Shown here: positions 9,526-13,476 of the stretch, piece by piece
How positions within the stretch are numbered: the stretch's first letter is position 1
How the letters are laid out: each line of letters opens with the position of its first letter
Assembly (NCBI GenBank): GCA_963719515.1
Contig: CAVRCJ010000005.1
Span: 96,001-160,000 of the forward strand
DNA length: 64,000 bases
Direction: 5' to 3'
DNA from: an uncultured cyanobacterium
GTDB lineage: Bacteria > Cyanobacteriota > Cyanobacteriia > CAKZMO01
Position numbers and translations under genes: made by a program
Notes under the pieces: generated by a model
Seen by the model: the letters and a program-made list of their open reading frames with translations, nothing else
What the model was told of the DNA's origin: nothing
The model's database searches: none

Positions 9526-9540
9526 GTTTCAATCCCCTTG
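9526..9540 (-). CRISPR. separated half of the terminal CRISPR repeat of array 1
   Basis: GTTTCAATCCCCTTG joined to CGGGGTGATGAGGTGCTGAAC (11996-12016) gives a 36-nt repeat with 4 mismatches to the array consensus. Confidence 0.88.
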
Positions 9541-9552
9541 TATGTTTAGAAA

Positions 9553-9734
9553 AGGAGCGGTAGACCAACGTCCTCTAGTTCGTGATGGTCTCCATCATAG
9601 TTCGACCGTAAGCACGGCTCACCGCTCCTATCCATTCTCTGAGAACTCGAACAAAGTGCCTACGGCAGGGCAAAGCCCAACGCCAGGTTCCTTCATAGAG
9701 ACCGTATCGCGCAAGACTGAGTGCAGAGCATGGA
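9553..9734 (+). ncRNA. putative IS110 bridge RNA
   Basis: Two long stems (9553-9561/9621-9629 and 9631-9641/9724-9734) each enclose an internal loop with CT on the left and AAG on the right. Loop 1 matches the target site. Confidence 0.7.
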
Positions 9735-10570
9735 GTTAAACTAACCATCAGCATCATACCAACATTCATGGCTGCAGATAAATCAAAGCAATCCTATAAC
9801 TGGATAGGCATCGACGTCAGCAAAGACTCTCTCGATCTCTATGACCTAAGCAAACAACACTACGCTCGCTACAGTAACAGTACAGAAGGGATAGAGGCGA
9901 TCGCCGATAGACTCCTCAAACAAGAGAACATTGCAGTGGTTTGTGAGGCGAGCGGTGGCTATGAGTGGCCGATGGCACTTGCTTTGCACGAGGCTGGATT
10001 GCGGGTAAGCGTGGTGAACCCTCGTCCAGTGCGAGACCTCGCGAAAGGAATGGGCAAGCTGGCCAAGACTGATGCTCTCGATGCCCAAATGATTGCCACC
10101 TATGGCCAGGTGACGCAGCCAGCAGAAACGGTGTTTGCCTCGGAAGCGGCAGAAGAACTCAAAGCGTGGGTCACCCGCCGTCAGCAATTGGTGGAGATGC
10201 TGAGCGCGGAAAAGAACCGGCGTAAGCGTCTACGTGGTCCCAAGCGCGACGATGTCGATGAGCACATCGCGTGGTTGGGTGGCCGCATCAAGCAGATAGA
10301 CGAAAAGATAAAAGAACTCAGCGAGTCAAGGGCCGAGTGGGCCGAGCGTAAGGCCATTCTTGAGAGCCCTAAGGGCATCGGTCCTGTGATCTCCTCTAGC
10401 TTGTTGGTGCTGTTGCCAGAGCTAGGCCAGCTCAACCGGCGGAAGATTGCTGCGCTGGCAGGGGTGGCACCGTTCAACCGCGACAGCGGCCAGTTTCGAG
10501 GGCAGCGCAGAATTTGGGGTGGCCGCGGTGCGGTACGCTCTTTGCTTTACCTAGCGACGCTGTCTACATT

Positions 10571-11624
10571 AAACATTATCGGAAATAAGGATGGGCATAG
10601 AATTCAGATACAGGAATTGAGGATCGCCATGAAGATAAACTACGAGGAGCTTCGAAATAAGCCACGCATACTGCAAGGCCTGACGGGGCTGAGGCAGAGG
10701 GAGTTTGAGGCGCTACTGGTGAGCTTTGAAGCAGCATGGGCAACGTTCGTTCGGCAGAGGTCTGAGCGAGAAGGGCGTCAACGGGGCTACGGTGGTGGTC
10801 GTCGAGCCAACCTGAGAACGCTGGCGAATCAGCAGCTGTTCATCTTGGTCTATTTTCGCCTCTATCCGACCCAGCAGGTACAGGGGTATCTATTCGGCCT
10901 GTCGCAGGCGCAGGCGAATATCTGGATACACCGGCTGACGGGGGTATTGAACCAGGCACTGGGCTACGAGAAGCAATTGCCAGAGCGAGAACCCGCCAAT
11001 TTAGAGGCGGTTCTCGACGCTTGTCCAAGCTTGGAGTTCATGGTTGATGGCACCGAGCGGCCCATCAACCGCCCAAAGGACAGAGGCGACCGTAAGACCT
11101 ACTACAGCGGCAAGAAAAAGGCGCACACGGTGAAGAACAACATCATCAGCGAACGGGGAGGTAAGGTCATCTTCTTGAGCGACACCTACGAGGGCAAGAA
11201 GCATGACAAGAAAATCGCCGAGGAGGAAGACTACCGGTTTCCTGAAGGAAGCGTGCTTTGGCAGGATACGGGGTTCCAAGGGTTCTCTCCTGCTGGGGTC
11301 ACCGTCAAACAACCCAAGAAGAAGCCGCGAGGGCAGCAGTTGACGGCTGAGGAAAAAGAGGCGAATCGCGCGATATCTCAAGTGCGCATTGAGGTGGAGC
11401 ATCACATCGGGGGCATCAAGCGCTGCCAGATTGTGGTGCAGAAGTTCCGTAACTGGGCTGCTCACTACATCGATGATGTGATGGAGACGGCTTGCGGTTT
11501 GCACAATTTCAGGCTGACCCATCGCCGTGCAGGGACAAGTGAGTCTCTGCAGGTTGTCTGAGAGCGGCGAGACTGAGGAGATTACTGTCACTCCGCCCAT
11601 CCTTCACTATTTCCGATAATGTCT
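10571..11624 (+). mobile_element. IS5-like DDE element nested in the IS110 gene
   Basis: Terminal inverted repeats A(A/G)ACATTATCGGAAATA and a 3-bp target duplication ATT (10568-10570 and 11625-11627). Confidence 0.88.
10629..11561 (+). CDS. DDE transposase (HTH_Tnp_4/DDE_Tnp_4-like)
   Basis: [30 protein letters not shown] and [13 protein letters not shown] motifs. Confidence 0.88.
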
Positions 11625-11995
11625 ATTGCACTCGAACCGTGCTATTCGAGCGTACTATCAGCATCTGCTTAAGCAGGGCAAGCCTAAGAAGGTGGCGATT
11701 GTCGCCTGTATGCGCAAGTTCTTGATTTGTCTCAATGCGATGGTGAAGACGAAGACGCTGTGGGATGACGACAAAGTGACGGCTCAGTTTCAGTCGAATT
11801 AGCAGCTTTCAGAGGCACAAACATACGGTAATTGTGACAGCTTAGCTTGAAGATGTGACAGTTCAGCCCTCAATTTGACGCGTGAGGAGGCTGATAGTTT
11901 GTGCTGCGCAAAATGCTTGGCTTGATGGCTCAAAGTTACTGTCGAGAACCTCGCTTTTTGCTTTGCGTCCCCTTGACGATAAACATAATCGCTTG

Positions 11996-13476
11996 CGGGG
12001 TGATGAGGTGCTGAACTCAAAACCTCGCAAAGGCTGAGGATACGTTCGCGAGTTTCAGTCCCCTCGCGGGGTGATGGAGTGCTGAACATGGCAGACTTAT
12101 TTGACTCAGCTACTGGCTGGAATTCATGTTTCAGTCCCCTCGCGGGGTGATGGAGTGCTGAACAGTCAAGATTGACGAAGTGAAAAAACGTCAAAGTCTT
12201 GTTTCAGTCCCCTCGCGGGGTGATGGAGTGCTGAACGGTTAATGCAGTCACGGGACACCTGTGACACTGAGGTTTCAGTCCCCTCGCGGGGTGATGGAGT
12301 GCTGAACACACAATGGACCGGCTAACGGTATCTAGGGAGTAGTTTTAGTCCCCTCGCGGGGTGATGGAGTGCTGAACGGGAATTCTTAAAAACTAGCAAT
12401 AACTCAGATTAAAGGTTTCAGTCCCCTCGCGGGGTGATGGAGTGCTGAACGTTTAAGGGCGAGTATTTTGCTGTTACTCCTGAAGTTTCAGTCCCCTCGC
12501 GGGGTGATGGAGTGCTGAACTCGTACTGGATAAGTTTGAAGTCAGCCTTCTGCAAAGCAGTTTCAGTCCCCTCGCGGGGTGATGGAGTGCTGAACTATCT
12601 AGAAGGCTCAAACGAGCCTAAGATTGGAGAAATGTTTCAGTCCCCTCGCGGGGTGATGGAGTGCTGAACTGTGCGACCAGCAGCGCTTACAACCCCACCC
12701 CCGTTAGTTTCAGTCCCCTCGCGGGGTGATGGAGTTCTGAACGTGATAGAACGGTATTCGGACAATTTTAGTCCAATTGGTTTCAGTCCCCTCGCGGGGT
12801 GATGGAGTGCTGAACACCCAAGGTTTACTCGATGATCGTGGATGAAGAGGTAAGTTTCAGTCCCCTCGCGGGGTGATGGAGTGCTGAACATCTGTGGCAC
12901 TTCGCCAATGACCAGGTGCCAGTCGGGTTTCAGTCCCCTCGCGGGGTGATGGAGTGCTGAACCTATCGAGACCTGAACTTTCCTGGGCTGGATCAAGAAA
13001 TGGTTTCAGTCCCCTCGCGGGGTGATGGAGTGCTGAACATCTACTGGGATGCCATGTTGTTTTAGGCAACCCGTTTAGTTTCAGTCCCCTCGCGGGGTGA
13101 TGGAGTGCTGAACTTCAAGTGCGGCAGCCAAGATTCTGGAAGGTGAGACAGGTTTCAGTCCCCTCGCGGGGTGATGGAGTGCTGAACACGAAATGTTACA
13201 GCGAATTCAATGGCAGTTAAAAGTTTCAGTCCCCTCGCGGGGTGATGGAGTGCTGAACTGAACCCAATGCAGGGAAACGACACTGTACTTGGTGGTTTCA
13301 GTCCCCTCGCGGGGTGATGGAGTGCTGAACGAAAAAGCCTGCTCCGGGGCCTGGAAGACAAGAAACAGTTTCAGTCCCCTCGCGGGGTGATGGAGTGCTG
13401 AACCGTAATGTTCAAGAGCCACTTAGAAAGCGTGGTACGAGTTTCAGTCCCCTCGCGGGGTGATGGAGTGCTGAAC
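11996..13476 (-). CRISPR. CRISPR array 1: 20 intact 36-nt repeats plus the split terminal repeat, 20 spacers
   Basis: Minus-strand repeat GTTCAGCACTCCATCACCCCGCGAGGGGACTGAAAC from 12052 to 13476. Leader is on the high-coordinate side and the degenerate repeat is at the trailer end. Confidence 0.97.

Follow-up and report, generated by a model that had tools for sequence, protein, structure and literature searches.

The window (the whole 64,000-nt stretch analysed here, from contig CAVRCJ010000005.1 of an uncultured cyanobacterium, assembly GCA_963719515.1) contains an IS110-group insertion sequence that splits the trailer-most repeat of a CRISPR array. The element was very probably integrated at the hairpin centre of that repeat under the guidance of a bridge RNA, and an unrelated insertion sequence later killed its recombinase. 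The evidence consists of the anatomy of the element, the homology of its recombinase, covariation in its left-end RNA, the correspondence between guides and flanks, and recurrence at the same repeat base in at least 14 junctions.

The insertion sequence and the split repeat

The features of the locus are the following (coordinates of the window, strand, description):

9526..9540, plus: left half of the trailer-most CRISPR repeat, which the element splits (GTTTCAATCCCCTTG); the left target, with the core CT at 9537-9538
9539..11993, plus: IS110-group insertion sequence, 2455 bp with the nested element and one copy of the CT core counted (equivalent to the earlier 9541-11995)
9541..9767, plus: left end, 227 nt, encoding an IS621-type bridge RNA as judged from the alignment of left ends with RNAalifold, the fold and a guide-to-flank test
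9541-9548, plus: left sub-terminal inverted repeat TATGTTTA, from the sequence
9541-9546, plus: predicted -10 box TATGTT of a circle-junction promoter
~9640 to 9730, plus: predicted donor-binding part of the RNA, with the conserved GCAAG at 9711-9715
9768..10569, plus: N-terminal part of the recombinase gene, 267 codons, covering the DEDD/RuvC-like domain and the first part of the Tnp domain (PF01548, PF02371)
10570..11626, plus: nested insertion sequence, ~1055 bp, which breaks the recombinase gene; ends known to within ~3 nt
10629-11561, plus: nested transposase ORF (DDE_Tnp_4 and HTH_Tnp_4, from Pfam)
11627..11802, plus: C-terminal part of the recombinase gene, 58 codons (…HSNRAIRAYYQHLLKQGKPKKVAIVACMRKF…), in frame with the N-terminal part once the nested element is removed, by comparison with intact relatives
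11803..11993, plus: right non-coding end, 191 nt
11817-11824, plus: inner degenerate copy of the end motif, CAAACATA, within the right end
11973-11978, plus: predicted -35 box TTGACG, within the right end
11980-11987, plus: right sub-terminal inverted repeat TAAACATA, the counterpart of TATGTTTA
11988-11991, plus: putative left-donor sequence ATCG, before the core CT at 11992-11993
11994..12016, plus: right half of the split repeat (TG and CGGGGTGATGAGGTGCTGAAC), the right target; repeat family D2
12017..13476, minus: CRISPR array 1, a 35-nt spacer and then 20 repeats GTTTCAGTCCCCTCGCGGGGTGATGGAGTGCTGAAC; the array is read from its leader, which puts the crRNA sense on the minus strand
13477..13680, minus: leader of array 1, conserved beside four arrays of the genome and ending in the GGTTTTCAAGGTTC motif at ~13640

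Joined together, 9526-9540 (GTTTCAATCCCCTTG) and 11996-12016 (CGGGGTGATGAGGTGCTGAAC) form a 36-nt repeat that is identical to the array consensus GTTTCAGTCCCCTCGCGGGGTGATGGAGTGCTGAAC at 32 of 36 positions, the four differences being at positions 7, 14, 26 and 27. Between the end of this repeat (12016) and the start of the next one (12052) lies a spacer of 35 nt, within the range of the array (34-40 nt, from a start-to-start spacing of 70-76), and 20 consensus repeats were counted from 12052 to 13476. The flanks of the element therefore rebuild a unit of the adjoining array, which is type III-associated, at its normal spacing. CTTG is present at both junctions (9537-9540 and 11992-11995), and the left boundary is ambiguous within it, the final 2-4 nt of the left half being common to the end of the element. 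The conserved leader lies beyond the opposite end of the array, which places the element at the trailer end. An earlier note made from this DNA had described a split repeat with four mismatches, one normal spacer from the next repeat, with CTTG shared by the junctions and at the trailer end, and the coordinates and the consensus comparison confirm this description. The CT core that it had adopted from IS621 lies inside the shared CTTG and agrees with the junctions of the family, ...CT^TGTAT on the left and ...AATCGCT^ on the right (^, junction; 28 further loci).

The element is present as a single copy in the 5.28-Mb genome. Its recombinase combines an N-terminal DEDD RuvC-like domain with a C-terminal Tnp domain containing the conserved Ser, as expected of the IS110 family: region 9768-10568 matched DEDD_Tnp_IS110 (PF01548, 1.6e-23) and Transposase_20 (PF02371, 5.2e-12) in Pfam. 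The stretches GIDVS, CEASG, KTDALDA and RDSG stand opposite GIDTA, IEATG, KTDTVDA and YESG of IS621 (in general form GIDxS, CEAxG, KTDxxDA and (R/Y)(D/E)SG), and we take them to hold the catalytic residues. Residues 9-264 aligned with the IS621 transposase structure 8wt6 (E 2.5e-33). In keeping with the IS110 family, nothing is duplicated at the target beyond the short shared core, only CT(TG) being common to the junctions. Sub-terminal inverted repeats, a feature of IS1111 elements (7-17 bp), are also present, with a length of 8 bp.

The nested element is likewise single-copy in the genome and carries terminal inverted repeats that are imperfect (10567-10594 and 11601-11628); metagenome contigs depart from the window into other contexts at 10567-10570 and 11625-11629. 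The proposed rebuilding of the recombinase by removal of 1057 nt proved sound: the frame is kept and the stretch has the same length as in relatives. This copy of the IS110 element is thus dead, its recombinase broken, and gives no indication of present activity.

The left-end RNA and its guides

The family survey yielded 28 further loci from 401 genomes; the order was represented by 17 genomes. The left ends of 25 elements could be aligned, with invariant blocks, and RNAalifold predicted 22 pairs in this alignment, 12 of them with compensatory changes; the left end of the window, folded alone, gave -65.9 kcal/mol (z -2.68). The element therefore possesses the long left non-coding end with a structured RNA of two internal loops that characterizes the IS110 group, and the RNA previously placed at 9553-9734 is upheld by this conserved structure and by the fit of its guides to their own flanks. 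GCAAG is invariant in 25/25 left ends and is complementary to the start of the element, CTTGT. On the donor side, the family sequence AAAATCGCC is similar to the right end AATCGCT; in the window, a 26-nt hairpin insert, also found in one relative (L105), splits this sequence, and the left donor guide is not cleanly readable there. Rfam assigned the left-end and right-end RNA to no family, either over the whole window at the gathering threshold or over 9400-12100 with E up to 1; its matches were limited to one tRNA and CRISPR repeat families.

Durrant et al. (2024, PMC11208160) describe, for IS621 of Escherichia coli, a left guide with the top-strand sense of left flank and core, and a right guide that forms the reverse complement of core and right flank. 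The target loop here reads in the same way: its 5' guide corresponds to left flank and core on the top strand, and its 3' guide to core and right flank in reverse complement. Across the family, left guides matched their own left flanks at a mean of 6.6/9 positions and the flanks of other elements at 5.4/9 (n = 23), and right guides matched at 6.9/9 and 5.4/9, respectively (n = 21). None of 2000 shuffled pairings attained the observed match for either guide, a test on related sequences that overstates their independence. Other guide/flank pairs include CAAAAAG/CTTTTTG (L107), GGTGCAG/CTGCACC (L118) and CGAGAG/CTCTCG (L047).

In the window, the guides TCCTCT and CCGTAAG face TCCCCT^TGCGG, the centre of the repeat hairpin, with the core CT. 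The left guide carries a C-to-T change, and its flank match is only 5-6/9. The right guide matches the split repeat (CTTGCGG) at 6/7 and the 20 consensus repeats (CTCGCGG) at 5/7; its match is never perfect, as a U-G wobble is required and, in L006, a U-T mismatch. The 11-mer specified by the guides (TCCCCTTGCGG) occurs 10 times in the genome, 8 times in CRISPR repeats and twice outside arrays. Since 8/10 copies lie in CRISPR repeats and relatives occupy the same base elsewhere, the insertion represents more than chance. The sequence read, 11-12 nt, is the core of the stem-loop that is conserved in many CRISPR repeat families of cyanobacteria, so that one guide setting gives a multicopy, nearly gene-free site.

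By homology with IS621, the integration would proceed as follows: (i) the excised element would circularise, and the junction of its right and left ends would form a promoter composed of TTGACG (11973-11978), 17 nt and TATGTT (9541-9546), two boxes that are conserved in the family at the sequence level; (ii) this promoter would transcribe the left end, which would be processed into a two-loop bridge RNA; (iii) the left guide of the target loop (family consensus NNNTCCCCT; ACGTCCTCT in the window) would base-pair to the bottom strand at ...TCCCCT, and the right guide (CCGUAAG) to the top strand at CT-TGCGG through one U-G wobble; (iv) the donor loop would bind the circle junction; and (v) the DEDD/Ser recombinase would exchange strands at the CT core without duplicating anything beyond it. 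A second, unrelated insertion sequence later entered the recombinase gene and inactivated the element.

Recurrence in CRISPR repeats and alternative readings

All six elements with a CCGT(A/G)AG guide and a visible right flank (the window, L006, L093, L096, L100 and L101) are located in CRISPR-type repeats, as are 8 additional right-end junctions. Both junctions are visible in five elements (the window, L006, L093, L101 and L100), and right-end junctions only at nine loci (G000:C10, L005, L011, L013, L008, L009, L096, L087 and L094). These 14 junctions all fall at ...CCCCT^T(G/T)CGGG, in repeats that differ in their 3' halves. Apart from the window, at least 13 loci use the same repeat base, and they come from no fewer than 7 genomes and 5 metagenome contigs. 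The left half found in the window also adjoins the left end of the element in L093, L101, L100 and L006, and in L093 the halves rebuild the consensus repeat of the array exactly. In the metagenomes, one contig shows this left half preceded by a different left flank, and another has the right end beside a different repeat type and a leader. In 8/8 array cases the element occupies the repeat farthest from the leader, with 3 to 20 or more further repeats. At three further loci, the split repeat is the sole repeat, with a leader motif within ~190 nt. The visible flank contains no array at three lone sites (L006, L087 and L094, the last with a flank of 153 nt only). The earlier proposal that an IS110 lineage lands in CRISPR repeats is therefore supported, and the outcome that it named as refuting, homologs with the same RNA inserting mostly outside such repeats, was not seen.

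Relatives whose guides differ (L047, L103, L129, L102 and others) lie outside CRISPR repeats; the target of L047 and L103 (TCCCCT^CT(C)(T)GGAGGGGTGCC) corresponds to no tRNA and to no Rfam family. One family-type right end (L089) lies beside a non-CRISPR flank, and another locus (L091) is ambiguous. The tree places the window, a CRISPR clade of four rows and three retargeted elements in one unresolved group of 8 rows, so that the CRISPR-targeting elements may or may not form a single clade. Many remnants were retrieved with queries built from right ends, which biases the kind of remnant seen. Of 10 metagenome pattern matches, four were due to chance (L088, L090, L092 and L095), and a phylum-wide DNA search with the right end, which scored 2 candidates per genome, contributed a single match by chance, located in a regulator gene of G237. 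A search for the empty site with the left flank 8700-9540 in four genomes of the same genus did not find one; it returned one 73%-identical Uma2 gene in another context without an array. In genome G001, a degenerate repeat that is intact and shares this right half lies at a different locus, and G004 has a 96%-identical, 5'-truncated gene fragment on a 2-kb contig, which is uninformative about the target.

The target could also be a generic GC-rich hairpin of the REP type (CCCCT..GGGG) that CRISPR repeats merely contain, without any specialisation of the element. Indeed, distant members of the family sit in REP-like palindromes (CCCCCT^TTTTGCAGAGGGG and CCCCT^TCTCC...GGGAGAAGGGG), ~11-12 nt only are read, 2/10 exact copies of the motif in the genome are outside arrays, and L006, L087 and L094 are lone repeat-like sites. 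However, these lone sites retain the length and the GTTT...GAAC ends of a repeat, at 14/14 clear junctions the CRISPR-type right half is complete, measures 21-23 nt and has the same ending as the repeats of the neighbouring array, 8 junctions precede 3 to 20 or more repeats and 3 a CRISPR leader motif, and no element with a CCGT(A/G)AG guide was found in a non-repeat site. A generic target is therefore unlikely.

It was also considered whether the target guide could lie in the right end, as in the seekRNA of IS1111-type elements, with GCGTCCCCTTGAC (11966-11978), a copy of the repeat's left half, as the guide. The right end is long (191 nt), right ends 68-82% identical to it adjoin other CRISPR half-repeats, the 8-bp sub-terminal inverted repeat is present, and 9-10/10 of the bases that precede TTGAC agree with the local repeat in L005 and L011. 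These bases do not track the target in L093, L096, L087 and L094, however, and CTTGAC stands at a constant distance from the end in most family loci regardless of target, within a segment (CTTGAC…AA(C/G)A(T/C)AATCGCT) kept in most of the 28 loci; TTGAC, being 17 nt from TATGTT on the circle, is placed as expected of a -35 box. Moreover, the guides that covary with the flanks are in the left end, and relatives with short right ends (L047 and L009) still target specifically, so that a right-end guide appears very improbable. A 170-nt right end that recurs beside another array and contains TCCCCTTG was rejected as a seekRNA for the same reasons, TTGAC being a family-wide box and the guides lying on the left.

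Five 5'-truncated remnants (C10, L011, L013 and L009, and G004 with a truncated gene) retain ~155-600 nt of the right end exactly at a half repeat and have lost the left end and the recombinase, and the array transcript enters the right end in antisense. The host could thus keep such remnants at array trailers, for example as a terminator or boundary of pre-crRNA, which would amount to partial domestication. This seems very doubtful: the truncation points vary, searches seeded with right ends can find only such remnants, and other arrays of the same genome have no such element. The right-end-only copies were also rejected as an independent module comparable to ssr9, given that their breaks differ (~155, 170, 330 and 600 nt) and that no left half-repeat or left-end sequence flanks them. 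Finally, a chance landing of an element aimed elsewhere, for which the single genomic copy and the imperfect left guide might speak, is contradicted by the recurrence at the same base and by guides that spell the site, and it can practically be dismissed.

Known systems and significance

Bridge-RNA-guided integration is a mechanism already known, and it is left unchanged by this work. The element shares with IS621 (PMC11208160; structures 8wt6-8wt9) a homologous recombinase, a long left end, a two-loop RNA, a CT core, ~11 nt of target read and a multicopy palindromic repeat as target. According to the same source, IS621 differs in targeting REP elements rather than the centre of a CRISPR repeat hairpin; the window element, known here from its sequence, also has an 8-bp sub-terminal inverted repeat and a longer inner hairpin in the target loop, and in its sub-lineage the right end is long and contains an additional, inner copy of the end motif. 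IS1111-group elements (Siddiquee et al. 2024, PMC11187229, which lists 26 catalogued elements that have two long non-coding regions) likewise have sub-terminal inverted repeats and specific repeat targets (attC sites, transposon ends). As described there, they differ from the window element, whose guides are upstream of the gene (IS110 order), not downstream, and whose terminal extensions are not the 7/3 bp of IS1111. In Pseudomonas putida, ISPpu9 and ISPpu10 (IS110 group) insert into a palindromic multicopy repeat and, like the present lineage, have modular or expanded loci, extra segments behind the recombinase gene and scattered partial copies (PMC12288879); the ssr9 module of ISPpu9 is reported there to have its own end boxes and to move alone, whereas the right-end-only copies found here are best read as 5'-truncated remnants.

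The earlier note knew of no characterised example of this targeting. That holds for the guides: in the literature covered, supplements being outside its scope, no paper was found linking bridge-RNA guides to CRISPR repeats. It does not hold for the insertions. The literature found on IS110 or bridge RNA together with CRISPR repeats comprised two descriptive reports and a Sulfolobus paper on the binding of Cbp1 to ISC1229. In Thermoanaerobacter, CRISPR arrays repeatedly contain IS110 copies, including a dimer and a MITE, which share 'the same insertion flanking sequences' (Biomed Res Int 2016, PMC4852346); this report, likened here by its description, predates bridge RNAs and concerns another phylum, and its insertions are interior, dividing arrays into several, whereas all array cases here are at the trailer end. 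For Thermus thermophilus, there is a hint of the same: a 32-bp end segment of IS1000A/B (IS110 family) is identical to the host CRISPR repeat, which its authors read as recruitment of the IS sequence for CRISPR and not as targeting, in an account that includes no guide analysis (PMC6352166). Judged by that description, this identity would be expected if the catalogued copy were one located in a repeat.

A more speculative possibility, which is rather improbable but worth stating, is that the element may reshape arrays. Integrated junctions would be half-matches for the bridge RNA of the element itself and the neighbouring repeats full targets in direct orientation, and bridge-RNA-guided recombination of a junction with a repeat close by would remove the intervening spacers. 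This would explain the trailer-edge position in 8/8 arrays, the fact that the split repeat of L093 is a perfect and not a degenerate terminal repeat, and the three loci with one split repeat beside an orphan leader.

In summary, a whole sub-lineage has its guide set to a hairpin core common to many cyanobacterial CRISPR repeat families. Bridge-RNA recombinases are under development for genome writing, which makes their natural target choices of interest, and this natural set of guides and targets (one guide, several repeat 3' halves and a wobble at the variable loop base) provides a test bed for mismatch tolerance. CRISPR repeats offer a multicopy and mostly harmless landing site that is carried between genomes with CRISPR loci, and for CRISPR biology the element is a concrete and sequence-specific agent by which arrays are interrupted. 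Its position, strictly at the trailer end, prompts the question of spacer deletion by such elements; if arrays were indeed reshaped in this way, an RNA-guided mobile element would home to the RNA-guided immune memory of its host and erode it.

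An IS110-group element within a terminal CRISPR repeat

The IS110-group element splits a CRISPR repeat, as the earlier note had proposed. Indeed, its two flanking half-repeats join into a 36-nt unit with four differences from the array consensus, and CTTG is present at both its left and right junctions. The features are as follows.

9526-9540: left half-repeat GTTTCAATCCCCTTG, 2455 bp left of the right half
9539-11993 (+ strand): IS110-group element
9568-9576: left guide ACGTCCTCT
9606-9612: right guide CCGTAAG
9768-10568: recombinase, N part (267 residues; DEDD_Tnp_IS110 and Transposase_20 domains)
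10570-11626: nested element of about 1055 bp interrupting the recombinase gene, with its own DDE_Tnp_4 transposase
10629-11561: transposase ORF of the nested element (DDE_Tnp_4/HTH_Tnp_4, 310 aa, apparently intact)
11627-11802: recombinase, C part (last 58 codons), 3' of the nested element
11996-12016: right half-repeat CGGGGTGATGAGGTGCTGAAC, one 35-nt spacer left of the array
12052-13476: CRISPR array of 20 repeats of identical length, GTTTCAGTCCCCTCGCGGGGTGATGGAGTGCTGAAC

The sequence from 13477 onward, terminating in GGTTTTCAAGGTTC, is kept beside four arrays of the same genome, and this motif is also found next to arrays in other genomes; a second leader type is common to two further arrays of the genome. 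The minus-strand version of the repeat ends in ...ACTGAAAC, a putative crRNA-handle end of the usual kind. The conserved leader at the opposite end of the array places the split repeat farthest from the leader, which confirms the trailer-end position claimed earlier. Immediately left of the left half-repeat, with no spacer between, the sequence at 9500-9525 (GAGGTGATGGGGTTAGTTGTG) is similar to the right half of a repeat (GGGGTGATGGAGTGCTGAAC), possibly a leftover from decay of the array.

The neighbourhood is type III-like, with Cas10 (791 aa), Csm4-like, RAMP and Cas6-like ORFs on the minus strand at 16329-24174, several of which are short, as if fragmented (Cas6 domain on 133 aa, Csm4_C on 147 aa). 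Further arrays with related repeats (GTTTCCATCCCCGTGAGGGGAAAATGGCGCGAAAC; GTTTCAGTCCCCTGACGGGGTGAAGTAGTCCTGAAC) are present at 25087-25270, 25790-26186 and 30095-30851, each with the same conserved leader on its right side and with no insertion. Defence-island genes surround the arrays (24521-24892, 27278-28410, 28627-29856, 8765-9367, 15621-16361) and comprise a DUF559 endonuclease-like gene, a PIN_10 and DUF433/HTH pair, a TIR-SAVED protein and two Uma2-family genes.

The N part of the recombinase aligned with the IS621 transposase structure 8wt6 (E 2.5e-33). The nested element ends in 28-nt imperfect inverted repeats, and taking out 1057 nt, as suggested in the earlier note, keeps the frame and yields the length of intact relatives. 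The IS110-group element and the nested element each occur once in the 5.28-Mb genome; in contigs from sediment metagenomes, the nested DDE_Tnp_4 element was found in different surroundings.

Location and specificity of the guide RNA

The guide was first suspected in the right end, which includes TCCCCTTG. Over 170 nt this end shares 68% identity with a segment of another contig, which likewise adjoins a right half-repeat, in that case from a different CRISPR repeat. This location was dropped: CTTGAC is a family-wide box, and the guides that track the flanks lie in the left end. A protein search over 401 genomes of the class detected homologues in 49, from which 28 further loci were retrieved, and four more by coordinates. 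In most retrieved family loci, left ends begin with CT^TGTAT(G/C)TT (caret, junction) and right ends close with CTTGAC-N3-5-AA(C/G)A(T/C)AATCGCT^; the core is therefore CT. When the ends are joined as a circle, CTTGAC is 17 nt from TATGTT, a spacing that agrees with the junction promoter reported in the IS110 family (PMC12288879).

The common architecture of the 25 aligned left ends opens with an outer stem and a variable 9-mer; a hairpin, a variable 7-9-mer and the closing stem come next, and then a second domain that carries invariant blocks. RNAalifold predicted 22 pairs, 12 of which show compensatory changes. In IS621, the first guide corresponds to the left flank plus core and the second to the reverse complement of core plus right flank (PMC11208160); this rule holds for both variable blocks.

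Match of guides to flanks
Left guide (n=23): own flanks 6.6/9; other elements' flanks 5.4/9; 0/2000 shuffles reach the observed value
Right guide (n=21): own flanks 6.9/9; other elements' flanks 5.4/9; 0/2000 shuffles reach the observed value

This comparison was made without L115, whose end had been called wrongly, and without L093, L100 and L101 (loci with a long left-end insert, judged by eye); the shuffle test overstates independence because the elements are related, but single guide-flank pairs are nonetheless plain. The compensatory changes and the tracking of own flanks bear out the placement of the guide RNA in the left end. The insert of L093, L100 and L101 (about 110 nt) starts by repeating part of the target loop's 5' half, with a second TCCCCT guide-like block.

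The insertion site of the window reads ...AATCCCCT^TGCGGGG, and CCGTAAG pairs with CTTGCGG with one U-G wobble. The left guide differs by one C-to-T change from those of relatives (AAATCCCCT, CTATCCCCT, CAATCCCCT, CCATCCCCT). The right guide fits the split repeat at 6/7 positions versus 5/7 for the 20 consensus repeats (CTCGCGG), a difference that may account for which repeat of the array was hit. In the genome itself, 8 of the 10 occurrences of the exact 11-mer are within CRISPR repeats.

Recurrence in CRISPR repeats and retargeted relatives

Both junctions are visible in five elements, i.e. that of the window, L006 (genome G010), L093 (metagenome), L101 (G543) and L100 (G528), and all five are flanked by the left and right halves of a CRISPR-type repeat; the halves of L093 restore the consensus of its array exactly. 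Only the right-end junction is available at G000:C10, L005 and L011 (G032), L013 (G010), L008 (G012), L009 (G029), L096, L087 and L094. The junction of L091 is ambiguous, and L089 has a family-type right end next to a non-CRISPR flank, its RNA lying off the contig. The right halves vary (GTGATGAGG..., GTATTAGG..., GGAAGTGAG..., GTAAGGGTT..., GAATTGG..., GAAGAGG..., GTAATGGAG..., GTAATGGAATT..., GAAGGGG...), and the junctions are separate events, in different repeat families with a common hairpin core.

Sequence following the junction
8 loci: 3 to 20 or more additional repeats
3 loci (L009, L096, L100): leader motif at most about 190 nt away
3 loci: neither repeats nor leader motif within the available flank

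Six elements combine a CCGT(A/G)AG guide with a visible right flank, and all six sit in CRISPR-type repeats; the chance hit considered in the earlier note would place them mostly elsewhere. The nearest relatives with other right guides occupy matching non-CRISPR sites: (i) L129, at CT^CAAAAAGG, (ii) L102, at CT^ACTTAG, and (iii) the sister elements L047 and L103 (recombinase 58% and 63% identical), at a common target TCCCCT^CT(C)(T)GGAGGGGTGCC (CT^CT(C)(T)GGAGGGG), which is not a tRNA and has no matching family in Rfam. In the recombinase tree, calculated without three rows having short matches, one starred 8-row group unites the copy of the window with three retargeted elements and a 4-row CRISPR clade that is well supported; the tree does not settle the branching order inside this group. 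More distant members (L107-L110, L117, L120, L122, L123) are in short palindromic REP-like repeats with matching guides, e.g. CCCCCT^TTTTGCAGAGGGG and CCCCT^TCTCC...GGGAGAAGGGG, and supply a naturally occurring set of cyanobacterial bridge RNAs with changed programming.

In the right-end-only copies, left break points differ and the left half-repeat is absent, and these copies are read, from their sequence, as 5'-truncated remnants; such remnants were preferentially found because the queries were right-end sequences. In the long right end of the sub-lineage (11803-11972), the end motif recurs internally in degenerate form (CAAACATA, 11817-11824) and TGTGACAG is present twice, a layout likewise present in L008 and L013; the right end of L047 and L009 is short, at only about 55 nt. 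Expanded IS110 loci have already been described in the literature.

L007 (G001, same genus) carries an uninterrupted degenerate terminal repeat, GGGTCCCCTTGCGGGGTGATGAGGTGCTGAAC, with a right half identical to that of the window; it follows a different gene and does not represent an orthologous empty site. Metagenome contigs from four runs of one study, compared over 9200-12300, provide hints from single short contigs: the left junction of the window was recovered in one contig of 566 nt, other sequence precedes an identical left half-repeat in one, and in one the right end runs into a different repeat type and then the second leader type. Recombinase relatives without the nested element are also among these contigs.

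Relation to previous reports and position in the array

Insertion of IS110 copies within CRISPR arrays of Thermoanaerobacter was reported in 2016 (PMC4852346), and a catalogued IS1000 end is identical to the Thermus CRISPR repeat (PMC6352166); neither report draws a link to a guide RNA. In the literature searched (full text and the founding papers PMC11208160 and PMC11187229, whose supplements may list natural targets), no statement concerns a bridge RNA or seekRNA set to CRISPR repeats.

The copy of the window is dead and belongs to a cyanobacterial IS110-group sub-lineage, for which the sequences support a bridge RNA set to the CRISPR-repeat hairpin core. The proposal of an IS110 lineage using CRISPR repeats as its landing site is thus supported by recurrence at other loci with matching guides. 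The recombination mechanism is that of IS621 (PMC11208160), and targeting of multicopy palindromes is usual in the IS110 family. More interesting is how strictly the elements keep to the trailer end or to a sole repeat, a position that either selection or element-driven spacer loss could produce.
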